A stretch of 64,000 nucleotides of DNA, from positions 1,172-65,171 of the forward strand of contig CAZLUT010000002.1 in the NCBI GenBank assembly GCA_964562805.1, in the 5' to 3' direction. Positions within the stretch are counted from its first letter, which is position 1; each line of letters begins with the position of its first letter. Under the pieces are notes generated by a model. The model was given only the letters and a program-made list of their open reading frames with translations. It did no database searches and was not told where the DNA came from. Source of the DNA: an uncultured bacterium. GTDB lineage: Bacteria > Omnitrophota > Omnitrophia > Omnitrophales > CAZLUT01. A program made the translations under genes and the position numbers. Of this stretch, positions 28,306 to 53,339 are shown piece by piece.

Positions 28306-29348
28306 GTGGAGTTGATAAAAAATCAAAAAAACTAAGAGCCGGCATCGTTGGATGCGGTCGAATTGCAAGTACGTTTGATTCGGATCCTAAGCGGAAGAAT
28401 ATTGCTACTCATGCCGGTGCTTATACAGCGTCACCTGGTGTTGACTTGGTAGCGGCATGTGATCTCGATGAGAAAAAAGTGGCAGCCTTTGGCGAGCGCT
28501 GGAAGGTTAAAAATTTATATACCAACTTTAATAAAATGCTTAAAAGTGAGAAGTTGGATATTCTAAGTCTCTGCACTTGGGCTGGATCTCACTTTCAATT
28601 GGCAAAAACTGCGATTAATAGCGGCGTAAAAGCGGTGTTTTGTGAGAAGCCTATAACAGTTTCTTTGAGTGAGGCGGATCAGCTGATTAAATTAGCCAAA
28701 CGCAAAAAAGTTGTATTTGCGGTTAATCACTCGAGGAGATGGGATTCAGGTCTTCAAAAAATAAAGTCTGCGATTAATCAGGGTAAGTTGGGTGAAATTC
28801 GCCAGGTGAGCTGTTATTACACTGCTGGCATTTCAAACACTGGAACTCACTTATTTGACTTATTAAATTTTTTCTTTGGTGATGCGAAACAGGTAATTGG
28901 CGCTGTTAGCAATTTAGTTGATAAAAAGGGTGCTGATCCAACTGTTTCAGGATTAATAGAGTATAAGAGCGGAACGTTGGTTTCTGTTCAGGGATTGAAT
29001 GTGAATGATTATTTAATTTTTGAGATAGATATTTATGGCTCGAAAGGAAGGATTCGCATTTGTAATAGCGGTTTTAAATCTCAGGTCTGGAAAGTTTTGC
29101 CAAGTGATTATTTTTCAGGCTACAAAGAGCTTAAAGAGGTAAAGTCATCTTTCGATTTATCCAAAAAAGAACAGATGAAAAACGCCGTCAAAGATATAAT
29201 GCAATGCATAAAAACAAAAAAGAAACCGTCCTCAAGCGCTAAGGATGGCATGAAAGCACTGGAGCTTATTTGCGCCATGAAGCTCTCATGCAAAAAAGGG
29301 ACCAAAGTAGATTTGCCGCTTAAAAATAGAAATATTACAACGGAGTAA
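28302..29348 (+). CDS. Gfo/Idh/MocA-family NAD(P)-dependent sugar oxidoreductase
   Basis: LRAGIVGCGRIAS Rossmann N-terminus and EKP motif CEKPIT. ATGA overlap with the upstream gene. Confidence 0.75.
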   Translation: MSGVDKKSKKLRAGIVGCGRIASTFDSDPKRKNIATHAGAYTASPGVDLVAACDLDEKKVAAFGERWKVKNLYTNFNKMLKSEKLDILSLCTWAGSHFQLAKTAINSGVKAVFCEKPITVSLSEADQLIKLAKRKKVVFAVNHSRRWDSGLQKIKSAINQGKLGEIRQVSCYYTAGISNTGTHLFDLLNFFFGDAKQVIGAVSNLVDKKGADPTVSGLIEYKSGTLVSVQGLNVNDYLIFEIDIYGSKGRIRICNSGFKSQVWKVLPSDYFSGYKELKEVKSSFDLSKKEQMKNAVKDIMQCIKTKKKPSSSAKDGMKALELICAMKLSCKKGTKVDLPLKNRNITTE

Positions 29349-29351
29349 AAG

Positions 29352-30590: not shown

Positions 30591-31651
30591 AAAGAAAAAA
30601 ACAGATTAAAATCAATAATAAGCCGATAGGTGATGGGGCACCCGTTTTTGTCATAGCGGAAGCCGGTTCTAATCACAATGGAAGTCTAAGGCAAGCAAAG
30701 AAACTTATTGATATTGCTGCTAAGGCGGGGGCGGACGCAGTTAAGTTTCAGACGTTTTCTGCAGATAAATTGTATTCGAAAAAAACCCCGATGATGAGTT
30801 ATCTCAGAAAAAACAAGCTGGTAAAGAAAAAAGAAACGGTTTGGGATCTTCTAAAAAAACTTGAAATTCCGAGAGTTTGGCATTCCGAATTAGCTAAGTA
30901 TTGCCGTTTAAAAAAAATATTTTTTCTTTCGACTCCATTTGATCTAAAGGCTGTTGATCAATTGGAAGCGGTTAATATGGCTGCTTATAAAATCGCCTCA
31001 TATGAAATAACCCATCTTCCTCTCTTGGAGAAAGTTGCAAAAACAGGGAAGCCGATTATTCTGTCGACCGGCATGGCAGATTTGGATGATATTAGGGTTG
31101 CATTAAAAACTATATATAGAACAGGAAATAAAAAAGTTGTTCTTTTGCATTGCGCTATCAACTACCCACCCAAATTTGAAGATCTTCATTTAAAAGCGAT
31201 GCAGACGATAAGGAACGAATTTAAGGTGCCCGTTGGTTTTTCAGATCATACGATGGGACTGACATCCGATGTTGCTGCTGTTGCTTTAGGGGCATGCGTA
31301 ATTGAAAAACATTATACGATTAGCCGGAAGCTCGAAGGCCCTGACCATTCTTTTTCATTGGAGCCTGACGAATTAAAAAACATGATCCAAGGTATCCGCG
31401 ACACCGAACGTGCTTTGGGCCTACCAATTAAACGAGCGACAAAAGCGGAAAAGGAAATGTATCGTCTTGGCCGGAGAAGTTTGGTTGCGGCCTGCAGCAT
31501 TCCAAAGGGAGCCAAAATATCTCGTAGGATGATCGAAGTAAAAAGACCGGGCTTTGGAATTCCAACCAAAGATATGAATCAAGTTATTGGCCGGCTAGCA
31601 TCTCGGGATATCGAAACAGACGATATTCTTTCGTGGAAGATGATTCGGTAA
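30587..31651 (+). CDS. pseI: Nonulosonic acid synthase (NeuB/PseI family) with a C-terminal SAF domain
   Basis: IGDGAPVFVIAEAGSNHNGSLRQAKKLIDIAAKAGADAVKFQTF. ATGA overlap start at 30587; the track's 30518 start lies inside the upstream gene. Confidence 0.85.
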   Translation: MKRKKQIKINNKPIGDGAPVFVIAEAGSNHNGSLRQAKKLIDIAAKAGADAVKFQTFSADKLYSKKTPMMSYLRKNKLVKKKETVWDLLKKLEIPRVWHSELAKYCRLKKIFFLSTPFDLKAVDQLEAVNMAAYKIASYEITHLPLLEKVAKTGKPIILSTGMADLDDIRVALKTIYRTGNKKVVLLHCAINYPPKFEDLHLKAMQTIRNEFKVPVGFSDHTMGLTSDVAAVALGACVIEKHYTISRKLEGPDHSFSLEPDELKNMIQGIRDTERALGLPIKRATKAEKEMYRLGRRSLVAACSIPKGAKISRRMIEVKRPGFGIPTKDMNQVIGRLASRDIETDDILSWKMIR

Positions 31652-31750
31652 TTTAACCGACGTCTCTTTGTTGCTGTCGGCTGGTTTTTAGGTAACAGAT
31701 TAATCAAAATCATAAATATATTGGTTTTTAAAGATTTATTTTGATAAGAC

Positions 31751-31790
31751 TTGACTATTATTGACAACTATAAGCTATTTTTGATAAGAT
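31751..31790 (+). promoter_or_regulatory. Second copy of the TTGACTATT(A/T)TTGA promoter box pair upstream of the HTH-pseB sub-operon
   Basis: TTGACTATTATTGACAACTATAAGCTATTTTTGATAAGAT. Its first 13 nt match 21166-21178 at 12 of 13 positions, and the CTATTTTTGAT box is shared. Confidence 0.4.
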
Positions 31791-31839
31791 TTATACGGTC
31801 TCAAAAATAACATAAGAGAATATAGAGGGTTAGTATTAT

Positions 31840-32100
31840 ATGGATGAAATCAAAGAAAATGCTGTTTATACGCCAGCAGAAACTCAAAAAATTTTAAAAA
31901 TCAGTGCAAGCACCATGACTCGCCTCATTAAAAAAGGATTGATTCATGCGGCCAAAATAGGGGGGCAATACCGCATTTTAGGTAAAGAAATTTTAAGAGC
32001 GATGTCGCCAAAATTGGAAGATAAAGTAGGAAAAATATACAACAAAGGCCGGCAATGGGTTCATGAAGACGATGATCCAAACAGAAAGGTCAAAAAATGA
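31840..32100 (+). CDS. Small excisionase-family/MerR-like helix-turn-helix DNA-binding protein
   Basis: TPAETQKILKISASTMTRLIKKGLIHAAKIGGQYRI matches the HTH_17/excisionase pattern. Size 86 aa. Its stop overlaps the pseB start as ATGA. Confidence 0.55.
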   Translation: MDEIKENAVYTPAETQKILKISASTMTRLIKKGLIHAAKIGGQYRILGKEILRAMSPKLEDKVGKIYNKGRQWVHEDDDPNRKVKK

Positions 32101-33095
32101 AAGATTTTTTCAAAAATAAGACAATTTTAGTCACGGGCGGCACAGGATCGTTTGGTAAAAAATTCATTAAAATGACTCTCGAAAACTTTTCACCAAAAAA
32201 AGTAATTATTTATTCCAGGGACGAAATGAAACAGTGGGAAATGCAGGATGAGTATAAAGAGTACGATAAAAGAAATGTGCTTAGGTATTTTATAGGCGAT
32301 GTTAGAGACCGAGAGCGTTTAGAGAGGGCATTCCACGGTGTTGATTATGTGGTGCATGCTGCCGCAACTAAAATTGTACCGACAGCAGAATACAATCCAA
32401 TTGAATGCATCAAGACCAACGTCAATGGCGCTATTAACGTGATTGATGCTGCAATTGACCAAAAGGTAAAAAGAGTCGTAGCTCTTAGCACCGACAAGGC
32501 AAGTAATCCTATTAATTTGTATGGTGCTACCAAGTTATGTTCCGATAAATTGTTTGTGGCTGCAAACGCATACACAGGAGACCAAGATACTCGTTTGTCT
32601 GTTGTTAGATATGGGAATGTGATGGGTAGTCGCGGCTCTATCATTCCTTTTTTTAGGTCTATCAAAAGCAAAAATAAGATTCCAATTACAGATATAAGGA
32701 TGACACGATTCATGATCACACTTGAGCAGGGTGTGGAATTGGTTTGGCTGGCGTTGCATGAAGCAATCGGTGGTGAGATCTATGTGCCTAAAATCCCTTC
32801 GATGAAGGTGGTTGATATTGCCAAAGGAATCGCACCAAACGCTGAACACAATATTATAGGGATCCGACCTGGAGAGAAGATACATGAATCGCTGATTAGC
32901 GAAGAAGATGCTCGAAATACTTATGAATATAAGGATTGTTACAAGATCCTGCCGGCTATTTATGATTGGCATGAATGTGCGACTCGAATAGGTGACGGAA
33001 AGAGGTGTGAGGAGGGTTTTTCTTATGCAAGCGGTAACAATTCCAAATGGATGACAAGTGAAGAACTGTCTAACTGGATGGAGAGGGAATATTAA
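32097..33095 (+). CDS. pseB: UDP-GlcNAc 4,6-dehydratase/5-epimerase (PseB/FlaA1/CapD family)
   Basis: KTILVTGGTGSFGKKFIKM, YxxxK (YGATKLCSDK). Size 332 aa. Confidence 0.85.
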   Translation: MKDFFKNKTILVTGGTGSFGKKFIKMTLENFSPKKVIIYSRDEMKQWEMQDEYKEYDKRNVLRYFIGDVRDRERLERAFHGVDYVVHAAATKIVPTAEYNPIECIKTNVNGAINVIDAAIDQKVKRVVALSTDKASNPINLYGATKLCSDKLFVAANAYTGDQDTRLSVVRYGNVMGSRGSIIPFFRSIKSKNKIPITDIRMTRFMITLEQGVELVWLALHEAIGGEIYVPKIPSMKVVDIAKGIAPNAEHNIIGIRPGEKIHESLISEEDARNTYEYKDCYKILPAIYDWHECATRIGDGKRCEEGFSYASGNNSKWMTSEELSNWMEREY

Positions 33096-33558
33096 TAGTA
33101 AAAAAAATTTCACCGTTAGAGTTGCCAGGCAGCCCGATTCAGATTGCTTGTTTGCGTGGCGAAATGATGCCGAGACGATTAGAAATTCACTAACTGGTAA
33201 ATGCGTTACAAGAAAAGAACATGAGAAATGGTTTAAAAATGTTATTAACTCGCCGGAATACAAAATTTTTATTGCGGTCAAACCCAACCATCATCCAATA
33301 GGAGTTGTTCGATACACGATGAAGAAAAAGAAAAATTTTGAAGTACATATCAATTTAAATCCCCGGGAGCGCGGCAAAGGGTGGGGAAGCCGCCTCATTA
33401 AGCGGTGTAACAACCTTTTAAAAAGATCTGCTGCTGGAAGCCGAGTGGTAGCCCAGGTTAAAGAAGATAATTTTCCATCGCAATCAGTTTTTGAAAGGGC
33501 CGGTTACCGGCGTCACTCAAAAACTGGCGGAACGATTACTTACCAGTCAATTCTATAA
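33058..33558 (+). CDS. pseH: GNAT N-acetyltransferase, PseH-like
   Basis: LFAWRNDAETIRNS and EHEKWFKNV align with C. jejuni PseH (IFKWRNHPDINQFM, EHLRFLKKL). GNAT core RERGKGWGSRLI. The start is uncertain because the ATG at 33058 overlaps pseB by 38 nt. Confidence 0.6.
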   Translation: MKNCLTGWRGNINSKKNFTVRVARQPDSDCLFAWRNDAETIRNSLTGKCVTRKEHEKWFKNVINSPEYKIFIAVKPNHHPIGVVRYTMKKKKNFEVHINLNPRERGKGWGSRLIKRCNNLLKRSAAGSRVVAQVKEDNFPSQSVFERAGYRRHSKTGGTITYQSIL

Positions 33559-33566
33559 ATAATGCC

Positions 33567-34118
33567 GTGTTAGTAAAATTTCAATCCTCAAATTTTACTT
33601 TATCGGGCAATAAAATCTGCCTCAATATTTTTTCAGATCAATATATTGCAGCAGATTATGTAAGTTGGTTTAATGATCAAGAAGTTTGTAAATTTAATAG
33701 ACATGGCGAAACTGTTTATACTCTTGAAAAAGCAAAAGAATATTATGAAGGCATCAAAAAATCTGAAAATATTATTGTTTTTGCCATTTGCGACAACAAA
33801 ACGAACAAGCATGTTGGCAATGTTAGCTTAGATATTTCCGGACAAAACAAATCAGGCGATATTGCGATTATTATCGGTAATAAAGATTATTGGGGTAAAG
33901 GTGTGGCAACCGAGGCGTTTGGTTTAGTGATCAATTTTGCGTTCAATAGCCTTAACCTGAACGAAGTGACTGCAGGTATGACAACTAACAACATGGGAAT
34001 GATTGGTGTTGTTGAAAAATTAGGATTTCAAAAAAAAGGTATCTCGAAAGATGCTCTTAAAAAAAAGAACGTTTACATGGACGTCGTCCAATGGGCGATG
34101 AGCAACCCAAAAAATTGA
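33567..34118 (+). CDS. GNAT-family acetyltransferase (RimL-like)
   Basis: IGNKDYWGKGVATEAFGLVINFAFNSLNLNEVTAG is a GNAT motif A/B pattern. Confidence 0.7.
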   Translation: MLVKFQSSNFTLSGNKICLNIFSDQYIAADYVSWFNDQEVCKFNRHGETVYTLEKAKEYYEGIKKSENIIVFAICDNKTNKHVGNVSLDISGQNKSGDIAIIIGNKDYWGKGVATEAFGLVINFAFNSLNLNEVTAGMTTNNMGMIGVVEKLGFQKKGISKDALKKKNVYMDVVQWAMSNPKN

Positions 34119-34178: not shown

Positions 34179-35312
34179 ATGCGTTATTGTAAAAAGTGTG
34201 TACAGCCTGATACAAGACCTGGAATATATTTTAATAAGGAAGGAATCTGTGGGGCTTGTTTGCACCAAGACGAAGTAAATAGTGGGATTGATTGGAATGC
34301 CCGTGAGCAGGAATTAAAGGAAATCGCAGAGTGGGCTAAGAAAACCACCAAGGCCCCCTACGATTGTGTTATCGGAGTGAGCGGGGGCAAAGACAGTACT
34401 TTTCAAGCCCTCTATGCAAGAGATAGATTAGGATTGAGAGTATTGCTAGTTAATAGCGAGCCCGAAGGTATTAGTGAAATAGGAGCCCATAATATAGAGA
34501 ATCTGATTAATTTAGGATTTGATACAGTTAAAATGCGACCAAATCCGAAAATCATCAAGCAGTTAATGAAGCGGGATTTTTACAAATACCTGAATCCCGT
34601 AAAGATCACAGAGTATTCACTATGGTCTTCTGCTTATATTATTGCTGATAAATTTGAGATACCTTTGATCATTCAGGGAGAGAATCCAGGATTAACCTTA
34701 GGTGTAAGAAATACCGGTGTAGGTACAGACAGTAACGCCCTGAACGCAAACAAGCAGAATACCCTTTCTGAAGACTGGAGATCATACATTAGCGATGAAA
34801 TAAGTGAAAAAGACATGTATTTTTATCATTACGATAGAGAATCCATGAAGAAAAAAGGGATAAGAGGTGTATGGCTTCAGTATTACGCAAGAGAATGGTC
34901 TCCGCCTCATAATGTTGAGTTTTCTATAAAAAACGGATTAACTGTCAGGCAGGATTTTGACCCTAAGGATATCGGTTCTTATATCGGCTATTTTCAGATG
35001 GACTCAGATCTAGTGCAAGTTAACCAGCTTTTAAAATACATAAAATTTGGTTTCGGTCAATGTACGGATCATGCCTGCTATGAGATTAGAATAGGAAAGA
35101 TAACGAGAGAACAGGGAGTAGAGTATGTAAAAAATTATGATGGAAAATGTGCCGACCGCTTTATTCAAACGTTTTGTGATTATCTTGGGATCACGGTGAA
35201 AGAATTTTGGAAGGTGGCTGATTCTTTTCGAGGGGACATGTGGAAGAAGAGTCCTAGCGAAGAATGGTTATTGAGAGATCCGGTATGGGAACAGGAAATA
35301 GCAAACGCATAA
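34179..35312 (+). CDS. pseA: N-acetyl sugar amidotransferase (PseA/WbuX family, PP-loop ATP pyrophosphatase)
   Basis: N-terminal CKKC...CGAC zinc ribbon. PP-loop VIGVSGGKDST. AAGGAG ribosome-binding site upstream. Confidence 0.65.
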   Translation: MRYCKKCVQPDTRPGIYFNKEGICGACLHQDEVNSGIDWNAREQELKEIAEWAKKTTKAPYDCVIGVSGGKDSTFQALYARDRLGLRVLLVNSEPEGISEIGAHNIENLINLGFDTVKMRPNPKIIKQLMKRDFYKYLNPVKITEYSLWSSAYIIADKFEIPLIIQGENPGLTLGVRNTGVGTDSNALNANKQNTLSEDWRSYISDEISEKDMYFYHYDRESMKKKGIRGVWLQYYAREWSPPHNVEFSIKNGLTVRQDFDPKDIGSYIGYFQMDSDLVQVNQLLKYIKFGFGQCTDHACYEIRIGKITREQGVEYVKNYDGKCADRFIQTFCDYLGITVKEFWKVADSFRGDMWKKSPSEEWLLRDPVWEQEIANA

Positions 35313-39674: not shown

Positions 39675-41234
39675 ATGAAAATTATAAAAAACGTTCTTAT
39701 TAATTTAACAGTTGCTGCTGTCAGTATTGTTTTGGTCTTTGGCGGCCTAGAATTTAGCTATAGAACCTTTGCTAGTGAGCGGGTATCCACATATTTTGAT
39801 GAGCAAACCGAAAAAGCCCTAGGGAAACCTGTTCCTAAGAAAGGAAAGGACGAATATCGTATTTTTATATTTGGCGGCTCATCGGCGTATGGATTTCCGG
39901 TTTCAGATCGTTTTTCGATCGCCGCTTGGCTCAGAAAAAGTTTCCCGCATTTGCTCCCCCAAAAAAAGGTAACGGTTATTAATTGTGCTTGGCCAGGGAA
40001 GTCTAGCCATCATGTTTTGGAGGGTGCCCGCACTGTTTTAAAGTATAAGCCGGATTTATTTATTATTTTTGAGGGACATAATGATGTGACCGTAAGCAAC
40101 CGTTTATACCTTGATAATTGGCTTTATTGGCTCAATTTCAGGATATTTTATGCAAGCCATGCTTACCAGTATTTGCATAAGAGACTTAGCCGGATGCGTA
40201 AGAAGCTGGTTTATGGCCGTGCCGGGCATGTCGAAAAGCAGCATCGAGAAGAGGTGATTGCGCAAAAAGTTTACAAAGAAGAAGGGTTTGATGAAGCCGA
40301 GTATGATCGCATCCTAAATCGCTGGGCAAAGAACATGGAGAGTGTCGTTAAGATCGCAGAAAGAAATGCGATCTCGGTTATGTTTTTAAGCATGCCGTCA
40401 AACATCCGCGATATTCCTCCTGCCCAATCGTCTCACCGCTCGGATTTGAGTCCTGCACAGCTTCAAAGTTGGAAACTTTTGTTCAATGAGGGCGGGAAAT
40501 ACGAAAAAGAAGGCAAATGGAAGGAGGCTCTCAAGTCTTTTCAAATGGCAGCAGGCATCGACCCGACTTACGCAGGACTCCAATATTATATGGGGCGTGT
40601 TTATGAGGGAATGGGAAAATATGAGAAGGCGAAGGAACATTATGTTTTAGCGCGTGACTTGGACAGGCTTTCAATCCGATCTAAGACGAAATTGAACAGT
40701 AGAATGAAAGAGATTGTCGATAAAAATAACCTGCCATTTGTCGATGTGGTCGGGATCTTGGAAAAGGTATCGCCTAATGGGATCATTTCAAGTGAATTAA
40801 TTTATGATGATGTCCACCCAACTGTGGTGGCGCAGCAAATGATAACGGACCAGATATTAAGAGAGCTGTGGCAAAAAGGCGAAGTGGATCCTTCGTCCGA
40901 ATGGTATTGGGAAAAATTGAAAGAAGCTAAGCAGGGTGAGGAATGGAAGGTTGATGGCGGAGTTGATGGTTACCGATATGTTCTTCAAGGGCTGTATCTT
41001 TGGGAGCATGATTATTGCAAGGAGGCAATACCGGAACTTAAAAAAAGTCTTGAAAAAATGCCCTCATTTATCGATTCGTACGCATTTTTAGGCGATTGTT
41101 ATATGAGGACAGATAACAAAAAGAAGGCTGCCGAAAGTTTTAATAAGCTCAAATCTGAAAACAAAGAGCACTTCGATAAGCTGATTGAAAAATACCCCCA
41201 GCTTAAAGAAAGCTATTCAAGGTCGATTGATTAA
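39675..41234 (+). CDS. SGNH/GDSL-like hydrolase domain plus C-terminal TPR repeats, signal-anchored
   Basis: N-terminal TM. IFIFGGSSAYGFP is a GDSL-like block I. The DxxH-like DDVHP lies near the C-terminus of the hydrolase domain. TPR-like YMGRVYEGMGKYEKAKEHY. Confidence 0.45.
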   Translation: MKIIKNVLINLTVAAVSIVLVFGGLEFSYRTFASERVSTYFDEQTEKALGKPVPKKGKDEYRIFIFGGSSAYGFPVSDRFSIAAWLRKSFPHLLPQKKVTVINCAWPGKSSHHVLEGARTVLKYKPDLFIIFEGHNDVTVSNRLYLDNWLYWLNFRIFYASHAYQYLHKRLSRMRKKLVYGRAGHVEKQHREEVIAQKVYKEEGFDEAEYDRILNRWAKNMESVVKIAERNAISVMFLSMPSNIRDIPPAQSSHRSDLSPAQLQSWKLLFNEGGKYEKEGKWKEALKSFQMAAGIDPTYAGLQYYMGRVYEGMGKYEKAKEHYVLARDLDRLSIRSKTKLNSRMKEIVDKNNLPFVDVVGILEKVSPNGIISSELIYDDVHPTVVAQQMITDQILRELWQKGEVDPSSEWYWEKLKEAKQGEEWKVDGGVDGYRYVLQGLYLWEHDYCKEAIPELKKSLEKMPSFIDSYAFLGDCYMRTDNKKKAAESFNKLKSENKEHFDKLIEKYPQLKESYSRSID

Positions 41235-44294: not shown

Positions 44295-45068
44295 TTACTT
44301 TTTACTTGTCTTAATCAAGAGAATCGTAGCAAATTTTCTTGGGATCACTCTAGCTTCAAGCCAAGCAATCCCCATATAAAAAGCATTAAGGACCTTAAAG
44401 CATCCGGCAAACAAAGGATTAACAGGCTTGTTTTGCGGAGTTTTTTGGAGGGCAGTTATTTTCTTTCTTTTAATTTTTAAATCAAAAATTGTAACGGCAA
44501 GCCACATAGCTATTTTATCCAGAAAGCCAACGACCTTTTTAATCTCGATAGGCTCAAGTTTCGCAGCGTTCAAATTTTGAGTCAACTCATCGAGATTATA
44601 ACGTCGGTAATGCTCAACAAATTTATCGTCCTTGGCATAATAAAATTTCTGATGCGGAATGGTGACAATTAATTTACCGCCTGTTTTTGTGATCCGGCTT
44701 AACTCATTAATGGCTTTTTGGTCATCTTTCAAATGTTCTAAAACTTCTGAGGAAAGAGTATGGCTAAAAGCACCGTCTTTAAAAGGAAGCCGCGCTGCAT
44801 CAGCCGCCACATAAAGTCCTTTTTGATTAATTTTTCTTAAAGCCCTAAGAGCGTTTAATGAAAGATCAGAATACACAATTTTTTCCGTTTTGGTCATGAC
44901 AGGTGACATGCCGGAGCCTATTTCGCCGATTAAGTCGTAGTTTTCATTTTTCAATGAATTTTCAACAGCTCGTTTTCTGAGGCGATAATTGTAAAGATAA
45001 TTTTTGAGCGCGACATAGTTGTCTTCTGTAAAAAAATCATCAAATCGATTATCGTGACCTTGAGTCAT
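44295..45068 (-). CDS. Class I SAM-dependent methyltransferase
   Basis: LIGEIGSGMSP glycine-rich motif I, acidic motif II VYSDLS, and motif LSSEVLEHL. Confidence 0.6.
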   Translation of the reverse strand: MTQGHDNRFDDFFTEDNYVALKNYLYNYRLRKRAVENSLKNENYDLIGEIGSGMSPVMTKTEKIVYSDLSLNALRALRKINQKGLYVAADAARLPFKDGAFSHTLSSEVLEHLKDDQKAINELSRITKTGGKLIVTIPHQKFYYAKDDKFVEHYRRYNLDELTQNLNAAKLEPIEIKKVVGFLDKIAMWLAVTIFDLKIKRKKITALQKTPQNKPVNPLFAGCFKVLNAFYMGIAWLEARVIPRKFATILLIKTSKK

Positions 45069-45081
45069 TAATTTGCAGAAA

Positions 45082-45858
45082 TTAGGAGGTTAAAAAAAGG
45101 CGTTTATTTTGGTCAGTTCTTTTTTCAAAAATGGGGAAGTGACAAAAACCCAGCTTTTCCAGCAAGTACTTAACGCTAGTTCCTAAAACACCCAACCCAT
45201 ACTTGATGGAGCGGCTAAAGTTGATCGAGGAAGCTTCAGGGAAATATTTGGTAGGACAGGAAATTTCACCAATGCGGTAATTAAAAAAAGCTGCCTGAGC
45301 CAAAAATTGATTATCAAAAATGAAGTCGTTGCTATTGGCTTCAAGGGGCAAATTTTCCAAAACACGCCGGTGGAAAGCGCGGTATCCCGTGTGGTATTCA
45401 GATAATTTCTCTCCCAATAATAAGTTTTGCGTCAGGGTTAAGAATCGATTTGCGATATATTTATGAAGGGGCATTCCGCCTCTTAATGTGGTGTTGCCCA
45501 GAATTCGTGATCCTAAAACCACGTCGTAAATGCCGGATGCGATCATGGCAGTCATTGCCGTTATCAATTTAGGGGTATATTGGTAATCAGGATGCATCAT
45601 TACCACAATATCAGCCTCACGTTTAAGGGCTTCCAGGTAGCAGGTTTTTTGATTAGCTCCATAGCCTTTGTTATGAGGGTGAATAACGGTAGTGATCCCA
45701 AGTTTTTTTGCCACTCTTAAAGTTCCATCGCTTGAAGCATCGTCAACCAGAATAATATTGTCTACATAGTCAAAAGGTATTTCCTGATAAGTTGTTTCCA
45801 ATGTTCGCTCAGCATTGTAAGCCGGCATCACAACAATAACTTTTTGCCCTAAAATCAC
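45082..45858 (-). CDS. GT2 glycosyltransferase, polyprenol-phosphate sugar synthase-like
   Basis: [33 protein letters not shown] and DxD MHPDYQY. Confidence 0.75.
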
Positions 45859-47576
45859 ATCGAATACCTTTCGTGCTGAGATCCATGGTAATGAATCGGG
45901 TTTAAAAACTCTTCATATTGAAACTGCTTAGCTTTACGTTTCAACAAGACTCTCTCGCCGTCATCGTAAATTAATTCTAAATCAGAATCTTTTTTAAGCT
46001 TATTAATCTTATCATTAATCCAATTTTTGTCATAAGGATAAGCGTTAACCGAACGGGCAAAGAAGTAGCAATCCGCATTGTTGTAGATCGGGTTATAAGG
46101 ATGCCCCTTTTTTTCATAAGGCCCTGAAAAATACATATTAAATTTTTTATAACCAATATAGGGAAGCAGGTGGCCTTGTGTTGCAACGATTGCCTGAGGA
46201 GGCAATTTTGAAATTTCAGAGATTGTTTTTATTTGAAAAGCATTAATGCTATGGCTAAGAAAATTTCCACCGGAAAGTAAGAGTAGAATAAGGAAAAAGC
46301 CCCGCAAAAAATATTCTTGCCATGAAAATTTATTTAGCCAGTTGGACAAGTTTCTAAGTCCTGATACGAAAGCAAAGAATAGAAAAGGAATGACTACAGC
46401 TGAGTAATGAAAGCGCAAATCAGAAAAATGTCCGTGCTCATCGTTCCACATACAAAAAGGAGGAATAAGTGCGGCCAGCACCATCAAATACCAAGGAGAA
46501 AGGAGAGGTAAGAACAATGTTAATTGAAGCAGTTTTAACTGTGTCTTAATTTTGGCATACGGCCAGAAAAGATTTTCTATTAAAACCCAGGGGTGAGTTA
46601 AATAATAAATTAAAACTTCTTTTGAGTTGGAGCCGACATCTTGGAAATTATTTGTTGAGCCCGCTAAAATGTTACTTCCCGTAAAAGGCAGAAAAATTTG
46701 CGTAAGAAAAAGAGCGTATAGTGTAGAAAGGGCTATAGAGACAAGCCCGAACCTGCGCTTTCCTTTAAAGAAAAGAAAAAATAAGCCGAGAGCCAGCACG
46801 TAAAGCGCAGCATCTTCCTTGACTAGCAGTATCAATATTATTGAGAAAATGTAGCTTTTAAATTTATTGCAAACAAAAAAGTAGAGTGCGGTAAAAATCA
46901 GGAGCGGATAAAAAGCCTCAACCAAAAAATTCATTTCTAATAAGTTTAGAAGATAGCGAAAATTTAAATATAGAAAAGCTATTGCAAGAGGTAGCCAAGT
47001 GTTCGGAAAAATACGGCGGGCGAGCAAAAAAAGAGGCAGTGCTCCCAGCGCCAAAAGAGGGCCGTAGACAACAATTAGAAACAAAGAATTTTTAAATAGG
47101 AGCCAGAACGGAGCGAAAATGTAGAGAACATTGTTTGCGTGATAAAACCAATGGAGCATGCCGGTAAAATTAATCTTACCTTGCCAGAAATAATGCAGCA
47201 TGTAGTCGTAAAAAGAAAATGGAAGGAAATTGATGTTTGCAGTCAAATAAGATGTGATTTGATTCCACAGAAAAAGGATGCTGTAGACGCTTATCAGAAC
47301 AGCAATTCCTTTGTAGCCCCGAGACCATTTTGTGAGATTGGTAAATATAGTGTTAACCCAAATCTTTCGGTTTGGATGAATGAGAACCCCAGCAGTTACT
47401 AGAATGAGAAAAAATTGATAAATTTTCCTTATAGATTTACTGCCAAAAACTTTCGGCAGCCACTCAGGGGCCGGATACCCGGCGATAATCATAATCAGAC
47501 ATAAAACTCCTGTGAATCCTGCTAAAAAGAGTATTGATGTTGAGATGGTTTTTAAGGCAGTATTAGGCTTAATCAT
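45855..47576 (-). CDS. Polytopic membrane protein, GT-C-like (DUF2079-like) putative glycosyltransferase
   Basis: 573 aa, more than 12 TM helices. ATGA overlap with the downstream GT2 on the same strand. Confidence 0.4.
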
Positions 47577-47630
47577 TGGGGAAGTTTATCGAAAATATAT
47601 TAAATATTAAAGATATAAAGATAGGAACAG

Positions 47631-49259
47631 GTGATTTACGGCGAAATAAACGATATAATCCCGGCAAAACGAAAGCGGATACTAATGAAAGAAAATTATT
47701 TAGCCGGATTTGAAGGAAAGATCGCGAAGCTGTTAACACTCCTCGATAGAAACCCCTATTCAAAAACATGCGGGTGTTTTGACCGCAATTTTTGGCACTA
47801 TAAAATAAAAGATTTTCCCTCAGGAATGTCTCAAGAGTTTGCTTTAGCTCTAGCTTTGGTTCATGAACTTAAAGATTCGGCCAACCCTTTTTACAAAAAA
47901 GAAACGCTTGCATCATATGTGGCTTCAGCGATTCAATATGCTCATGTCTCATCACGGAAAGATGGATCTTGTGATGATTATTTCCCTTATGAAAGGGCGT
48001 TAGGGGCAGCCGTCTTTTCTCTTTATGCTCTTACGGAGTCTTATTTGCTTTTAGACTTGGGCAATAAGGACCATATTGATTTTTTTAAATTGCGTGCCAA
48101 ATGGATCATGACAAATGATGAATCGGGACGCCTTTCAAATCATCACGCTATTGCGGCCCTTGCCCTTTATAACGTTTATCTGATCACGAATGATGCTATT
48201 TTTAAGAAAGCGGCCCAGAAAAAGGTAGAGCAAGTTCTCGAGTGGCAAAATGAAGAGGGGTGGTACGAGGAGTATGAGGGCTGTGACCCGGGTTATTTGA
48301 CGGTTTCCATTGATTTTCTTGCGCAATATTACAAAAAAACAGAAGATGCGAAAGTGTTAGCCTCATTAGAAAAGGCTCTAGATTTCTTTTATCAAATCCA
48401 AAATCCTGACGGGACATTGAGCCCGGAGGTCGGATCACGATTCACGGCTATTTTTCATCCTAATGGGTTTGAAATATTAGCCGAAAAATTTGAAAAAGCA
48501 GCCCGGGTGGCTAATTCCTATTTATCTGCCAAGATTGGAAATCGACTGCCTGATATGAGTGATGATTATGTCATAGGGCATATGCTGATATCTGAGCTAA
48601 ATGCTTTTAAGAATTTTAAACGGAGAGATGTCTCTCACCTTAACACTTCATTCGAAACACAAAAGAGTTTGTATTATAAAAAGGCCGGTCTTTTTATTCG
48701 AAGCAATGGAAAAAAATGGGCAATTTTTAATCTTTTAAAAGGAGGATCAGGCAGGATCTATGATGAAGGTAAGCTTGTTTACAGCGATTCGGGCGTGGTA
48801 GCTAAAAAAGGAAAGGGGCTTCTCGTTTCTGCGATGGTGGATCCTGAAGCTATGATACAGATCCGTGAGAATGGTTTTGTCGTGCGTAAACACTTGATGA
48901 TCTATGCGCAAAAATACGCGACGCCACTCATTTTTTTATTATTTCGTCAATTCCTTTTCTTCTTCGGTCCATTTAAGAGGTCAAGCCAACGTTTAAGAAA
49001 GTTTTTACAGAAAAAAATGATCCTTGGCAAAAAACCGGCCGTTGCTTTCTATGAAAGAGGTATTTCTTTTAGCGGAGAAGAGATCGTGATAAAAGATCGA
49101 ATCGAAAAAAGCGAAGGAATTACTAAAGCCTCCTTAAGTCAAAGCCTTGTCCCGCGTTACATTGCTGTTTCTGAATGTTTTGAAATAGAGTCTCTTAACA
49201 GAAAATTTATTCCTTTGGAGGGTAAGGGCGGGATTTTTGAGAAATCTCAGGTCGTTTAA
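47631..49259 (+). CDS. Conserved hypothetical protein, possibly an alpha/alpha-toroid polysaccharide-modifying enzyme; C-terminal hydrophobic segment
   Basis: 542-aa ORF with no stop. Helix-rich repeats (ALALVHELKD, AIAALALYNVYLITND). No motif that I can assign. GTG start uncertain. Confidence 0.3.
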   Translation: MIYGEINDIIPAKRKRILMKENYLAGFEGKIAKLLTLLDRNPYSKTCGCFDRNFWHYKIKDFPSGMSQEFALALALVHELKDSANPFYKKETLASYVASAIQYAHVSSRKDGSCDDYFPYERALGAAVFSLYALTESYLLLDLGNKDHIDFFKLRAKWIMTNDESGRLSNHHAIAALALYNVYLITNDAIFKKAAQKKVEQVLEWQNEEGWYEEYEGCDPGYLTVSIDFLAQYYKKTEDAKVLASLEKALDFFYQIQNPDGTLSPEVGSRFTAIFHPNGFEILAEKFEKAARVANSYLSAKIGNRLPDMSDDYVIGHMLISELNAFKNFKRRDVSHLNTSFETQKSLYYKKAGLFIRSNGKKWAIFNLLKGGSGRIYDEGKLVYSDSGVVAKKGKGLLVSAMVDPEAMIQIRENGFVVRKHLMIYAQKYATPLIFLLFRQFLFFFGPFKRSSQRLRKFLQKKMILGKKPAVAFYERGISFSGEEIVIKDRIEKSEGITKASLSQSLVPRYIAVSECFEIESLNRKFIPLEGKGGIFEKSQVV

Positions 49260-50212
49260 TGAAAAAAAGATTTCTTTCACTTCTTTTAACGCTTTTGATC
49301 TTCTCCCTGATCTTTAAAAGCATCGATCTTAATTCATTCAAAGAAGCTGTAACCCAGATTAATTACCGTTATTTATTACTGGCTTTAAGTTATTTTTTAA
49401 TCTATCCATTTATTGGAATTGAACGTTGGCGTCGCATGGTGACCGCGCGCTACCCTTTTAAATTTAAGGAAGCATTCAAGATTTATTTTATAGGCGAGTC
49501 GCTGAATCTCGCCCTGCCTTCCAAAGCCGGAGATCTTTCTAAGGGGTATTTTCTTAAGAAGGCCGGAGTATCGTCTTTCTCCTATGGCTTAAGCACAGTG
49601 GTTTTTGAAAAGCTTTTGGACTTTTTGTCGCTCGGATTTGCTTTTTTGATCGGGTTGCTGTTTATTCACGGCAGCGGGGAATTTGTCGGAAAGATAATTT
49701 CGATTATTGCGCTTTTTGGCGCGGCTTTTATCTTTTTCTTATTTTTAGACAAAATGAGATTTATTCGAGGCCTTCTTTACAAGTTCAAGTTAAAAAAGAT
49801 ATTAAGATCATTTCGAGACATTATATCTTTCGTTAGGGTCATTAAAAAAAACCATCACCGGGTTTTGTTTTTTTCTCTCATTTTTGTTTCGATCATTTTT
49901 TGGCTGGGGCATTTTTTTCAAATATGGCTGTTTTTTAAAGCCGCCAATATGGACATTACTTTTTTACAGGTTCTTTTTTATGTGCCTATTGCTATTTTTG
50001 TGACCCTCATTCCGATTACGATTGCTGGGATGGGGACCCGGGATGCGATGCTGATTTTTTTACTTCAAGGCTTTATACCACGTGCCACGATTGTTTTGGG
50101 TGGACTTCTTATAACGCTTCGTTATTTTATCCCCGCGGCGTTTGGTTTGCTGTTTATTAAGAATGCGGTCGACTATGTAAAGATCAAAAAACCCAAACGA
50201 ATTAAAAAATGA
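49259..50212 (+). CDS. Flippase-like domain membrane protein (UPF0104/LPG-synthase TM region-like)
   Basis: Roughly 8 TM helices. N-terminal pattern ...NYRYLLLALSYFLIYPFIGIERWRRM. TAATG overlap upstream. Confidence 0.5.
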   Translation: MKKRFLSLLLTLLIFSLIFKSIDLNSFKEAVTQINYRYLLLALSYFLIYPFIGIERWRRMVTARYPFKFKEAFKIYFIGESLNLALPSKAGDLSKGYFLKKAGVSSFSYGLSTVVFEKLLDFLSLGFAFLIGLLFIHGSGEFVGKIISIIALFGAAFIFFLFLDKMRFIRGLLYKFKLKKILRSFRDIISFVRVIKKNHHRVLFFSLIFVSIIFWLGHFFQIWLFFKAANMDITFLQVLFYVPIAIFVTLIPITIAGMGTRDAMLIFLLQGFIPRATIVLGGLLITLRYFIPAAFGLLFIKNAVDYVKIKKPKRIKK

Positions 50213-52053
50213 ATCTAATTAATAATTTTCAGAGCATTCTAATCGCAGCAACTTTTTTACCTATAGTTTATTTTTTGGGCAGTTTATTTTTGCTGAAAAC
50301 CGATTCGCTTTCAATCGAGTGGAAAGGAATCGTACGGCAGGCTATCGGCTTTGGCATTTTGAGTTATCTGATGGTTCTTTTGGGGGTGTTAGGCTATTTA
50401 AAGGCAAGTGTATTTTGGGCTATGTATGGGATACTGCTGCTTTTATCGATTACTAAAATCCGTGGCTGGCTAGATTGGGCGGGAAACATCTGTGGGAGAT
50501 TTTCAGAAGAAACCGGGTGGCTAGGACGCTCAGCGCTTGTGCTGGGCGCAATTTATTTTTTTATTTTGCTCATTGGAACACTTGCTCCCGAAATTGGAAC
50601 CGATGCGCTTTGCTATCATTTAGCGACCCCTAAAGCCTTCCTTTCAGAGGGAAGAATTTTTTATTCCCCCTATGACATCAATTCTATATATCCTTTTTTT
50701 CAGCAGATGCTTTATCTGTTTGGATTTGGTTTAAAAAATGCTGTTTTGGCCAAAATGATTCATTTTGAGATGGGTGTCCTTCTTTTTCTTTCCGTTTTTT
50801 TAATTTTAAAAAGATTCCAAGTCTGCCAGGCATTTTTTTGGGCGCTGCTTTTTATGATAACGCCCGGCATTACCAATCAAATGACAACGGCTTTTACGGA
50901 TATCGCTTTAACGCTTTATGTCTTACTTGGAATATACTTTTTATTTGACGGCGTTGAAACAAACAAGAAGCTCTTTTGTTTTTTGGGCGGGCTTTTCTTC
51001 GGCTTTGCGTTCTCAGTTAAAGCAATAGCAGGAATCTATCTGGCGGGCGCCGCGGCGGCGTGTTTTGTTATTTTGTTTTCAGGGAAAGAAAAAAAATATT
51101 TAAGCGGATTTGCAGCTGGAACATTTCTGGCACTGCTCGCTTTCCTTTTAGCGTGCAGCTTTTGGTATTTGAGAACCTACCTAGTCATAAATAATCCCTT
51201 TTACCCTTATTTTTCAGGCGTTGGGTCTGGCGTTGAATACAACGTTGGAGGACGGGGGATCTCGTTTTTGAATTTTATTTTACTTCCGTGGGATTTAATA
51301 GTTCATGCCACCTCGTTTGGTAATCGAAGCGATCAGATAGGCCCGGTTTTTTCGCTGATCTTACCCTTTGCTATCTGGGCTGGAATTAAGATCAAACAAG
51401 CAAGATATTATTTGAGCATGGTTTTAGTCTCTTTAGTTTTATGGTTTTTGGTGGCAGAACGATCTCGGTTTCTATATCCGGCGCTGCCGCTCTATTTTGT
51501 ATCCGGAATTGCCGGAATAGAGCTTTTTCGGGAAAGATTTTTTAAGGTAGGCACTTTATTAAGGCTCCTGTTTTTTACGGTCCTTTTAGGAGGTGTTGCT
51601 TTGAGCGCTTACCATTACCGTTATCAGATGAAATTGTTTACAAATACGTGGAGCCAGCAGGATTTTAGGCAAAATTTGGAGCGAAGCAAAGTAATCACAG
51701 ATTACATCAATCAGGAACTGTCGGAAAATGTAAAGATTTTAAATGCTGAAGAAATTCATCGGTTTTATTTTGAAAAACCAATCGTGAGAGAAGGTTTGTT
51801 TGCAAAGGAAACGCGCTATCACGAAAAGCATAAAACACCAGGAGAGATAATTAGCTTTTTGAAAGAAAATGGATTTACTCATGTTTTGATTTCAGAGCCG
51901 ATTGGGACTAAAAGAAACCTTGATAACCTTCGTGTTGGGGTGATCCTTAGCAATAAAAAATACGCGAACAAGTATTTTGAAAAAGTATTTGAGGGCGATT
52001 CGCTAAATAAAAAAGATCAGAAACATCACTATATTCTTTACCGGATCGAATAG
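50209..52053 (+). CDS. GT-C family membrane glycosyltransferase (ArnT/PMT-like) with a C-terminal soluble domain
   Basis: Roughly 13 TM helices followed by a 150-aa hydrophilic domain. ATGA overlap. Confidence 0.5.
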   Translation: MNLINNFQSILIAATFLPIVYFLGSLFLLKTDSLSIEWKGIVRQAIGFGILSYLMVLLGVLGYLKASVFWAMYGILLLLSITKIRGWLDWAGNICGRFSEETGWLGRSALVLGAIYFFILLIGTLAPEIGTDALCYHLATPKAFLSEGRIFYSPYDINSIYPFFQQMLYLFGFGLKNAVLAKMIHFEMGVLLFLSVFLILKRFQVCQAFFWALLFMITPGITNQMTTAFTDIALTLYVLLGIYFLFDGVETNKKLFCFLGGLFFGFAFSVKAIAGIYLAGAAAACFVILFSGKEKKYLSGFAAGTFLALLAFLLACSFWYLRTYLVINNPFYPYFSGVGSGVEYNVGGRGISFLNFILLPWDLIVHATSFGNRSDQIGPVFSLILPFAIWAGIKIKQARYYLSMVLVSLVLWFLVAERSRFLYPALPLYFVSGIAGIELFRERFFKVGTLLRLLFFTVLLGGVALSAYHYRYQMKLFTNTWSQQDFRQNLERSKVITDYINQELSENVKILNAEEIHRFYFEKPIVREGLFAKETRYHEKHKTPGEIISFLKENGFTHVLISEPIGTKRNLDNLRVGVILSNKKYANKYFEKVFEGDSLNKKDQKHHYILYRIE

Positions 52054-52072
52054 TCCAGTTATTATACCCGCT

Positions 52073-52981
52073 ATGAAACAAGCAGAAATTATTAAATCAG
52101 ATCTTGATGTTACAGTATTGCTCCCTGCCTTTAATGAGGAGAAGGCGATTGCGGCAGTCATTGATGACATTAATCAAGTTATGGAAAATACTCGCTATCA
52201 ATATGAAATTTTGGTAGTGGATGATTGCTCAAAAGACCGAACAGTTGAAATCTCGCTTGAAAAAGGCGCCCGAGTAGAACAGCATGTAACGAACAAAGGA
52301 AGCGGTGCAGCGCGCAGAACGGGTATTCGCCGCGCTCGGGGCGAAATTATCGTAGTTTTAGATGCGGACGGCACTTATTCGCCGCAAGATATCCCCAAAA
52401 TGCTTGAGATGTTTCCTAAGTATGATCAAGTGAATGGAGCCAGGACTTCCGAAGAAGGTACCTTAAAGATATTGAGAGCGCCAACCAAATGGTTTATTAG
52501 AAAGCTGGCTTGTTATTTATCGAAATCAAATATCCCCGACCTTAATACGGGTCTAAAAGCTTTTAAGCGCAGTATTATGCTGAAATATTTATGGGTAATT
52601 CCTGATGGGTTTTCCTGCGTTACGACAATGACACTTGCTTTTTTGTGTAATGGCTACAACGTAGGATGGGTTGACACCAGATATCATAAACGAATTGGGG
52701 AATCGAAATTTCACCCAATTAAAGACACAGTGAAATATATGATGACAGTTATTCGTTTAATTATTTATTTCAATCCCTTAAGTGTTTTTCTGCCCTTAGG
52801 ATCTATTGTTTTGGCTGTTGGTCTTTTGCGCTGGATTATTGTAAAGGTTACGGGAGGCGAAGGTATTTTTCTTGGCCCTATTATGGTTCTCGCAGCTTTT
52901 GTGATATACGCAATTGGGTTTTTAGCTGACCTGATTGTTGCCCAGGCTAAAAATATCAATTCAGCATCTATCGCTGAATAA
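52073..52981 (+). CDS. GtrB-like GT2 polyprenol-phosphate glycosyltransferase with two C-terminal TM helices
   Basis: VTVLLPAFNEEKAIAAVIDDI, LVVDDCSKDRT and VVLDADGTY. C-terminal helices LSVFLPLGSIVLAVGLL and FLGPIMVLAAFVIYAIGFL. Confidence 0.8.
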   Translation: MKQAEIIKSDLDVTVLLPAFNEEKAIAAVIDDINQVMENTRYQYEILVVDDCSKDRTVEISLEKGARVEQHVTNKGSGAARRTGIRRARGEIIVVLDADGTYSPQDIPKMLEMFPKYDQVNGARTSEEGTLKILRAPTKWFIRKLACYLSKSNIPDLNTGLKAFKRSIMLKYLWVIPDGFSCVTTMTLAFLCNGYNVGWVDTRYHKRIGESKFHPIKDTVKYMMTVIRLIIYFNPLSVFLPLGSIVLAVGLLRWIIVKVTGGEGIFLGPIMVLAAFVIYAIGFLADLIVAQAKNINSASIAE

Positions 52982-52997
52982 TCGGTTTTTTCCCTGT

Positions 52998-53339
52998 ATG
53001 ATTTCTGAAATCCAAGATTTTTGTAAAAAATGTCAAGAGTGCTGTAAGTGGGAAGGTTATGTCTACGTAAGCCAGTTCCGCATCGAAGAAATTTCAAAAT
53101 TTTTAAATATGCCGGCTGATAAAATTATGGATGATCATTGTGAGTTAATAGGAAAACAATTAGTTCTTAAAGGTCATGGTCACGAAGATTGTGTTTTTCT
53201 GGGTAATGGGGGCTGCGCGATTTATCCGGTCCGCCCCATGCAATGCCGAACCTTTCCGGAAGGCTGGAAGGAAGGGAATGGGGCCGAAGATTGCCCCTTG
53301 GTTAAAAAAGGTTTTTTATCTCCGAAAAAGGCCGGATAA
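52998..53339 (+). CDS. YkgJ-family CxxCxxCC zinc/iron-chelating domain protein
   Basis: CKKCQECCKWEG and C-terminal CAIYPVRPMQCRTFP. Internal ATG chosen to avoid overlap with the upstream gene. Confidence 0.6.
   Translation: MISEIQDFCKKCQECCKWEGYVYVSQFRIEEISKFLNMPADKIMDDHCELIGKQLVLKGHGHEDCVFLGNGGCAIYPVRPMQCRTFPEGWKEGNGAEDCPLVKKGFLSPKKAG

Follow-up and report, generated by a model that had tools for sequence, protein, structure and literature searches.

Two back-to-back modules predicted to glycosylate the cell surface in an Omnitrophota polysaccharide locus

Introduction

How many separate glycosylation systems does one bacterial surface-polysaccharide locus encode, and how do their lipid-linked sugars cross the membrane? 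The question is raised by a 64-kb stretch of DNA from an uncultured Omnitrophota bacterium (contig CAZLUT010000002.1 of assembly GCA_964562805.1), which we call the window, and in particular by the seven open reading frames (ORFs) at 44295-52981, the interval examined here. Extracytoplasmic glycan decoration from lipid-linked sugars drives antigenic diversity, and its flippase step is the least understood. A first-pass annotation, made from the DNA letters, had found in the interval extra pairs of a family 2 glycosyltransferase (GT2) and a GT-C-type transferase, together with a flippase-like protein. This core reading is right.

The interval consists of two individually conserved modules, placed back to back around a short divergent intergenic region within a large Wzx / Wza-Wzc surface-polysaccharide locus. 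Module A, on the minus strand, encodes a 573-aa GT-C protein of the DUF2079 family, a DPM1-like GT2 and a methyltransferase. Module B, on the plus strand, is headed by a 542-aa ORF that the first-pass annotation does not mention and continues with an MprF-type flippase-like protein, a 614-aa GT-C protein and a GtrB/ArnC-like GT2. We propose, with moderate confidence, that these are two lipid-carrier-dependent extracytoplasmic glycosylation modules of Gtr/Arn-like type, which likely add single sugars to a cell-surface glycan.

In this locus, as in about 580 genomes, an MprF-type flippase-like protein is tied to GtrB/ArnC-like synthases and GT-C proteins in bacteria, an association previously predicted mainly for archaea. 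The comparison also brings to light a large protein family without a name (about 1,500 clusters at 50% identity), whose gene almost always lies between the synthase and the flippase-like gene or next to them.

Conservation of the Module B genes

The conservation of Module B shows in gene neighbourhoods. We collected the surroundings of 542-aa homologues from 80 genome loci and assigned the neighbouring genes by searches with proteins of the window. Within 7 kb, 59 of these loci have a homologue of the 302-aa GT2 and 58 a flippase-like gene. We then defined a strict set of 61 loci with at least 3 kb of flank on each side, in which a partner counted if it was on the same strand and within 3 kb. 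Here 44 loci have the GT2, 43 the flippase-like gene, 36 both and 51 at least one of the two. GT2 homologues beside a 542-aa homologue match with E-values down to 1e-114. The commonest order is GT2, 542-aa homologue, flippase-like gene, on one strand and tightly spaced; we refer to these three genes as the triad. The genomes belong to 12 or more phyla, among them Cyanobacteria, Myxococcota, Desulfobacterota, Planctomycetota, Sumerlaeota, Omnitrophota, Auribacterota, Verrucomicrobiota, Acidobacteriota, Gemmatimonadota, Lentisphaerota and Tectomicrobia. Across phyla, no component is found with the GT2 and the flippase-like gene as steadily as the 542-aa protein, which the first-pass annotation overlooked. 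Module B is an instance of a widespread four-gene pattern, in which a protein of lyase/epimerase fold accompanies a synthase and an MprF-type flippase-like protein.

Large polytopic proteins are common neighbours of the triad, and representatives of several of their clusters match the PMT_2 or PIG-V mannosyltransferase families. A GT-C gene related to the 614-aa gene lies directly upstream of the GT2 gene in loci from Auribacterota (which carry the best-scoring 542-aa homologues), UBP3 and Omnitrophota. Methyltransferases resembling that of the window stand near the triad in 12 of the 80 loci.

The window encodes two further GT-C-type proteins, a YfhO protein and a 531-aa PMT_2 protein, and the best matches of both, and of the window GT2, come from Omnitrophota loci. 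In one Omnitrophota metagenome-assembled genome (L059, about 8001-15500), the triad is immediately followed by close homologues of the YfhO (E 5e-126) and 531-aa (E 2e-59) proteins; in the window, unlike L059, these two genes lie 30 kb from the triad. The triad's GT-C partner therefore seems interchangeable. On the deltaproteobacterial chromosome CP070692 (5332-10579), a 546-aa protein without a Pfam match precedes the GT2, the 542-aa homologue and the flippase-like gene, and several other clusters of polytopic triad neighbours, 575-620 aa long, also have no Pfam match. These proteins may represent unrecognised GT-C families.

The 542-aa protein

The family of the 542-aa protein comprises 1567 clusters at 50% identity with E<=1e-3, 582 of them with E<=1e-30, and is present in at least 580 GTDB species genomes. 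The closest match among those genomes is 41% identical, and cultured carriers among them include Desulfogranum japonicum DSM 18378, Gloeocapsopsis crepidinum LEGE 06123 and strains of Microcoleus or Laspinema. An alignment of 56 sequences has 44 invariant columns; W55-H56-Y57, N170-H171, E214-Y215, Y222, R270 and H317 are among the invariant residues. For comparison, PL8 lyases have an Asn/His/Tyr/Arg tetrad and dermatan-sulfate epimerase a His/Tyr/His set. Homologue alignments start at residues 19-31 of the listed ORF, so the real start is probably ATG 47685, which would give a protein of 524 aa.

The structure model (predicted local distance difference test score 93.2) has an (alpha/alpha)6 toroid at about residues 20-330, followed by a beta-sandwich at about 345-541. 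A helical hairpin is inserted in the sandwich (residues 428-468), with a net charge of about +7 across the family. Both domains together match chondroitin AC, hyaluronate and xanthan lyases, with TM-scores up to 0.56, and further matches are PL33 and PL35 lyases, heparinase III and GH127. The best architectural matches overall are PL8, PL33, PL35 and PL12 lyases and GH127. Taken by itself, the toroid is also similar to AGE-type epimerases, to hydrolases of GH88 and GH105 and to terpene cyclases. This fold suggests epimerase- or lyase-type chemistry as a prediction from the model, and the cationic hairpin could bind a predicted cytoplasmic protein to the membrane surface.

The resemblance is clear at fold level, and sequence profiles give borderline scores. 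The Pfam Pec_lyase family reaches 23.2 bits (cut-off 22), spread over about 40 residues in which no single stretch is significant; GH127 scores 21.5 bits, under its cut-off of 24.9; and the NCBIfam pec_lyase model scores 20.8 against 189.8. A search of the PDB with the family profile returned a best E-value of only 0.15, and the single sequence likewise found nothing useful there. Sequence identity to any lyase is 8-13%, and the family members examined lack a signal-peptide-like N-terminus.

Glycosyltransferases and the flippase-like protein

The remaining Module B genes fit a lipid-carrier pathway. Over its full length, the 317-aa protein falls in the MprF flippase-domain family (PF03706 / COG0392 / UPF0104), for which lipid translocation is a prediction. 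Its Pfam match covers residues 5-294 of 317 (147.6 bits, cut-off 33.4), the NCBIfam 'flippase-like domain' TIGR00374 scores 75.6 bits against a cut-off of 43.2, and it has about 7 membrane helices. Its sequence matched nothing in the PDB at E<=0.1. A Pfam search of the interval's seven genes found no flippase domain of the GtrA, SMR or MATE type.

The 614-aa protein has about 12 hydrophobic segments, and its C-terminal domain is soluble. Its family is rare, and we found 10 homologues. Neither the protein sequence nor the family profile matched a PDB chain. The protein passes the PMT_2 threshold, and hhalign links its family to a PMT_2 family that includes the window's 531-aa protein (98.0% probability, E 1.8e-13, 336 columns) and to the DUF2079 profile (96.6% probability, E 5e-10). 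These comparisons place it, as had been proposed, in the GT-C superfamily and not among transporters. D132, Y136, H137, D231 and K271 are invariant in the family. Two distant relatives (P0067 and P0072) occur in unrelated genomic contexts, so the linkage of this family to the cassette is limited to close members and to relatives of the L010 type.

The 302-aa GT2 aligns with ArnC (9hwj, residues 12-271; 9bhc, 13-281) and GtrB (5ekp, 10-258), and its N-terminal part also matches the archaeal dolichol-phosphate mannose synthase 5mlz. It has 2-3 C-terminal hydrophobic helices at residues 238-288. The ArnC and GtrB alignments span both the catalytic domain and this membrane hairpin, as expected from the GtrB-like assignment with C-terminal helices made earlier, and a near-full-length alignment of this kind is a sequence signature of polyprenyl-phosphate glycosyltransferases. 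The ArnC model of NCBIfam scores 62 bits against a cut-off of 529. AglJ is the top NCBIfam match for both GT2s of the interval, under its cut-off. Downstream, a CxxCxxCC (YkgJ-type) ORF listed at 52935-53339 would overlap the end of the GT2 gene by 47 nt with its TTG start; its true start is probably farther downstream.

Module A encodes a second set of candidate enzymes. The 573-aa protein crosses the membrane with about 9 or more helices and ends in an alpha/beta domain. Its sequence matched nothing useful in the PDB. Fold comparison of its structure model finds the GT-C membrane-helix core, again in line with the earlier assignment to GT-C transferases and not transporters, and the top structural neighbours include the oligosaccharyltransferases AglB and PglB, Pmt4 and ArnT. 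GT-C enzymes conserve an acidic residue, catalytic or metal-binding, in the first extracytoplasmic loop; in an alignment of the subfamily, D124 is nearly invariant and K253-E254-D255 invariant, as positions in the sequence. A literature search on DUF2079 found no paper. The family as a whole here receives a first structural assignment: a GT-C enzyme whose GT2 and methyltransferase partners are fixed.

The 258-aa GT2 of Module A has a single PDB sequence match, the Pyrococcus furiosus dolichol-phosphate mannose synthase 5mlz (E 3.4e-6), and no membrane helices, and is on these grounds DPM1-like. Its best NCBIfam matches, all under cut-off, are AglJ, PpgS and a Dol-P-hexose transferase. The methyltransferase gene starts 13 nt past the GT2 stop codon, and its product has one weak hydrophobic segment at residues 179-197.

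Module A also recurs across genomes. A metagenome scan was seeded with the close DUF2079 subfamily, as the full DUF2079 alignment is too diverse, and we examined 37 loci around close relatives (37-77% identity), about 27 of which have enough flank. Among those 27, the order DUF2079, GT2, methyltransferase occurs in 16 and rearranged variants in 4-7 more. The partner matches are of orthologue grade by phmmer (GT2, E 1e-81 to 1e-112; methyltransferase, E 1e-34 to 1e-49). In one locus (L098), Module A lies among GT4, GT9 and initiating sugar-transferase genes. Two neighbours that we considered as 542-aa homologues were rejected: a 551-aa divergent neighbour of DUF2079 in L007 had no BLASTP similarity, and a 1541-aa neighbour in L005 none either.

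The coordinates are collected in Table 1. All seven ORFs are in the ORF list at or adjacent to the positions given in the first-pass annotation, whose domain labels agree with the Pfam and NCBIfam assignments, and, apart from the minus block, no run of minus-strand genes occurs between about 3.9 kb and the window end (64 kb). Some details differ. We count two GT2/GT-C pairs in the interval where three had been claimed; the third is the 17620/18378 pair, which had already been tallied. Of the four or five GT-C-type proteins proposed for the window, four stand: Pfam supports YfhO and the 531-aa protein, and the comparisons above support the 573-aa and 614-aa proteins. A fifth is unsupported. The ATGA overlap ascribed to the minus module is a GTGA overlap, since the junction between the 573-aa and GT2 genes reads ATGTGA on the minus strand, and the GT2 therefore starts with GTG. 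A genuine ATGA overlap lies in the plus block, at 50209-50212, between the flippase-like and 614-aa genes. With the TAATG overlap of the 542-aa and flippase-like genes (49257-49261), it couples three of the four Module B genes translationally, and the 614-aa gene ends 19 nt upstream of the 302-aa GT2 gene.

Table 1. Positions of the Module A and Module B genes and of associated predicted elements in the window
Feature	Position	Strand	Evidence or remark
Module A gene 3: SAM (S-adenosylmethionine)-dependent methyltransferase, 257 aa	44295-45068	-	Pfam Methyltransf_11 2.8e-14
Module A gene 2: DPM1-like GT2, 258 aa	45082-45858	-	Pfam GT2 6.4e-20; GTG start
Module A gene 1: GT-C of the DUF2079 family, 573 aa	45855-47576	-	DUF2079 Pfam 4.5e-36
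Divergent intergenic region	47577-47684	.	AT-rich; 54 bp with GTG 47631 start, 108 bp with ATG 47685 start
Module B gene 1: soluble protein of an uncharacterised family, 542 aa	47631-49259	+	ORF list; 524 aa if ATG 47685
Module B gene 2: MprF-type flippase-like protein (PF03706 / COG0392 / UPF0104), 317 aa	49259-50212	+	LPG_synthase_TM Pfam 7e-43
Module B gene 3: GT-C of a rare PMT_2-related family, 614 aa	50209-52053	+	Pfam PMT_2 28.4 bits, cut-off 26.1
Module B gene 4: GtrB/ArnC-like polyprenyl-phosphate GT2 with C-terminal membrane hairpin, 302 aa	52073-52981	+	Pfam GT2 3.9e-29
Terminator-like hairpin with T-rich tail, end of the plus-strand operon	52959-52979	+	Consensus scan, pattern match only

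A predicted pathway and its alternatives

The gene content, the family and fold assignments and the conservation of both modules and of their juxtaposition are observed. From these we infer all the enzymatic steps, which lipid carrier and acceptor are used, what the 542-aa protein does and whether a flippase is shared. [quoted passage not shown] The 542-aa protein probably modifies the lipid-linked sugar before flipping; we propose this role because in most genomes its gene holds the middle position taken elsewhere by ArnD, GpgD and HexD. The MprF-type protein would then flip the product to the outer leaflet, where the 614-aa GT-C would pass the sugar to an acceptor, most likely the polysaccharide of the locus itself. 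Module A would supply a second pair of donor synthase and transferase, the DPM1-like GT2 and the DUF2079 GT-C, and its methyltransferase probably yields a methylated sugar. Having no flippase gene of its own, Module A may use that of Module B. A shared flippase would explain why the modules stay adjacent in relatives.

Several observations weigh against this proposal. Experimental support for COG0392 proteins is limited to phospholipids and glycolipids and does not extend to polyprenyl-phosphate sugars, and GpgF and HexF are unverified as flippases (PMC12713373, PMC10128005). A COG0392 gene is found near Module A in only one of the 37 loci (L002), so flippase sharing is not general. A GT-C-family gene was recognised within 7 kb of the triad in only 25 of the 61 strict-set genomes, a lower bound, and the triad may not always feed a GT-C. 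Finally, the toroid and beta-sandwich fold of the 542-aa protein is common to glycan-cleaving lyases and hydrolases.

The proposal could be taken further. [quoted passage not shown] We regard this wider version as tentative, and on balance doubtful. If lipid-linked sugars are indeed what the family modifies, these pathways would gain a new enzymatic step, and there would be a handle on epimerised or methylated side-chain sugars in poorly studied phyla such as Omnitrophota, Sumerlaeota, Myxococcota and Cyanobacteria.

Among the alternatives, the one that survives best concerns the acceptor, although we still hold it to be rather unlikely. Here the GT-C proteins would act on periplasmic or outer-membrane proteins, on lipid A or core, or on peptidoglycan-linked polymers. 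PMT_2, the closest Pfam family of the 614-aa protein, is a protein O-mannosyltransferase family, and the same direction is indicated by AglB, PglB, Pmt4 and ArnT among the structural neighbours of DUF2079. The GT9 gene beside Module A in L098 encodes a heptosyltransferase, an enzyme of the lipopolysaccharide-core type.

The main rival to the pathway itself is that the triad makes and flips an end-product membrane glycolipid, and that the neighbouring GT-C is functionally separate. The logic of synthase, modifier and flippase, with a COG0392 protein, is experimentally tied to glycolipids (PMC12713373, PMC10128005), and the proven COG0392 cargo, that of MprF, is a phospholipid (PMC5898192, 10.1101/2022.03.11.483950). 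Over half of the genomes examined have the triad without a recognisable GT-C. Yet GT-C genes frequently neighbour the triad, and in the window the operon itself contains the GT-C gene along with a synthase of ArnC/GtrB type, a gene order that is kept in L002 and L121. The archaeal protein AglD, moreover, joins a COG0392 domain to a dolichol-phosphate sugar pathway (PMC5898192). We consider the glycolipid explanation unlikely here, although it may still apply to the family at large.

A similarly small chance falls to the possibility that the 542-aa protein is a glycan-processing lyase or hydrolase that trims or clears polymer. Glycan-processing enzymes such as AlgL, BcsZ and PslG are common in polysaccharide operons, and the architectural matches and borderline Pec_lyase and GH127 scores described above would suit such an enzyme. 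However, no lyase family threshold is convincingly met, identity to lyases is very low, and the family members examined have no signal-peptide-like N-terminus. The conserved partners in 12 or more phyla are a GT2 and a flippase-like protein, usually immediately adjacent. We retain the proposal of two lipid-carrier-dependent modules, with the 542-aa protein as a probable modifier of the lipid-linked sugar.

Juxtaposition of the two modules

The two modules are kept together in relatives. L002 has the same divergent layout, with identities of 77% for DUF2079, 59% for the 542-aa protein and 75% for the GT-C and a gap of about 500 bp; L121 has it with identities of 59%, 59% and 47% and a gap of 56 bp. 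The synteny of the minus block is not universal, since in L004, a 56% relative, Module A lies beside housekeeping genes without Module B. The other flank of Module A also varies: L002 lacks the NUDIX and 231-aa methyltransferase genes that the window has there. In five cyanobacterial loci (L055, L056, L067, L072 and L082), a distant analogue of Module A lies divergently upstream of the triad; it contains a methyltransferase, a GT2 and a GT-C of PIG-V-like type, in some cases along with DUF2079. Our data make a functional link between Modules A and B plausible.

The first-pass annotation had instead read the minus block as a separately acquired cassette. That it arrived fairly recently, landed inverted and works independently of the plus block is very unlikely: Module A is self-contained and occurs in many unrelated contexts without Module B, and its other flank varies as described, but its GC content, GC content at third codon positions, codon usage and tetranucleotide composition all lie within 2 standard deviations of the window's genes, the divergent junction persists at 77% and 59% protein identity with a gap of similar size in the window and L121 (54-56 bp), and analogous modules flank the cyanobacterial triads. 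Synteny of the minus block in relatives, which the first-pass annotation had itself named as a sign against this reading, is seen in part. Native composition and kept juxtaposition together do not support a recent independent acquisition.

The intergenic region between the modules (Table 1) is presumed to be a bidirectional promoter region. A consensus promoter scan found zero sites within 47577-47684, and region-wide it found fewer sites than in shuffled sequence.

The surrounding locus

Downstream of the plus operon, Pfam identifies housekeeping genes (CxxCxxCC, MiaB-like). Genes for a leucyl aminopeptidase, a GTP cyclohydrolase I and a thioredoxin-like protein (10090-13089) separate the Wza/Wzc export genes from the YfhO gene, so the 'locus' is not continuous. 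At 413-3765, a 660-aa Wzy_C / O-antigen-ligase-like protein adjoins a HAMP-GGDEF diguanylate cyclase, and a small PilZ-domain protein is encoded at 12211-12594. The cyclase and the PilZ protein are sequence-level hints of control of the glycan by cyclic di-GMP.

Several gene sets point to further predicted decorations. A radical SAM / SPASM protein is encoded at 21336-22376, between an aminotransferase gene and a stretch (22400-26480) whose genes look like a set for phosphonate decoration of a glycan. This stretch encodes a phosphoenolpyruvate mutase with an N-terminal cytidylyltransferase-like domain, a thiamine pyrophosphate-dependent decarboxylase (phosphonopyruvate decarboxylase-like) and a cytidylate-kinase-like protein, and includes a weak CDP-alcohol phosphatidyltransferase match. 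A nonulosonic-acid gene set of the pseudaminic/legionaminic type follows at 27571-34118, with a CMP-sugar synthetase-like CTP_transf_3 protein, a GFO oxidoreductase, a DegT aminotransferase, NeuB, a PseB-like dehydratase and two GNAT acetyltransferases.

A 519-aa protein combining GDSL/SGNH hydrolase and TPR regions is encoded at 39675-41234. A 523-aa counterpart of the same architecture (L007, 12873-14444) lies two genes from DUF2079 in an unrelated polysaccharide locus, and the protein may be a recurrent acyl-modification partner. Three ORFs have no Pfam match at E<=1e-3, namely 5908-7434 (508 aa), 26534-27574 (346 aa) and 34179-35312 (377 aa). The last, directly upstream of the genes for a 625-aa protein and Wzx, could be a candidate polymerase.

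Comparison with known systems

Three-component periplasmic glycosylation consists of a polyprenyl-phosphate-sugar synthase, a flippase and a GT-C (PMC11127046). The modules described here resemble such Gtr-type systems (GtrB/GtrA/Gtr*; CsbB-GtcA-YfhO; the pentofuranose systems of PMC11127046) in that a GtrB-like GT2 with a membrane hairpin and a GT-C are encoded together in a surface-glycan locus, and in the post-assembly addition of a single sugar from a lipid-phosphate donor, which is here predicted from the genes. Gtr-type periplasmic glycosylation layered on a Wzx pathway was the first-pass interpretation, and the synthase and GT-C families and the Wzx / Wza-Wzc setting fit it. The flippase does not: where a GtrA, SMR or MATE flippase stands in those systems, Module B has a non-homologous COG0392 (MprF-type) protein. 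Module B also adds the strongly conserved soluble 542-aa protein, and Module A adds a methyltransferase and lacks a flippase gene.

Another parallel in logic is the Arn pathway (ArnC, ArnD, ArnE/F and ArnT), which transfers aminoarabinose to lipid A and in which a modifying enzyme acts between the GT2 and the flippase. The proposed order of GT2 loading, cytoplasmic-face modification, flipping and GT-C transfer would follow the same four steps, and among PDB sequences the 302-aa GT2 matches ArnC best. The likeness to ArnC is distant, however, and Module B has neither an ArnD-type deformylase nor ArnE/F. Its GT-C is not an ArnT orthologue, and it is gene position that suggests a modifier role for the 542-aa protein.

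The structural neighbours of the 542-aa protein are PL8, PL12, PL33 and PL35 lyases, dermatan-sulfate epimerase and GH127. It differs from them in its 8-13% identity, in having no profile match to solved structures and no signal peptide, and in the cationic hairpin inserted in the beta-sandwich. Its genomic partners are a lipid-carrier GT2 and a flippase-like protein.

Operons encoding a synthase, a modifier and a COG0392 protein have been tied experimentally to glycolipids in two bacteria: gpgSDF of Pseudomonas aeruginosa, for glucosamine-phosphatidylglycerol (PMC12713373), and hexSDF of Clostridioides difficile, for an aminohexosyl glycolipid (PMC10128005). Module B shares with them the single-operon triad of synthase, sugar modifier (here a predicted one) and flippase-like protein. 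Their synthases are of the GT4 or monogalactosyldiacylglycerol-synthase types, act on glycerolipids and are accompanied by a deacetylase modifier, whereas Module B has an ArnC/GtrB-like GT2, a toroid middle protein without a deacetylase domain and an embedded GT-C gene.

The MprF-type domain is widespread in bacteria (10.1101/2022.03.11.483950). In archaea, COG0392 is fused to AglD or adjoins AglD-like GT2 genes and PMT/STT3-like genes (Makarova, Galperin and Koonin 2015, PMC5898192). Unlike these neighbourhoods, Module B is bacterial and has its domains in separate proteins, and the 542-aa family lies outside the archaeal description. What the two have in common is the predicted combination itself: an MprF-type flippase domain, an AglD/AglJ-like GT2 and a GT-C-like protein.

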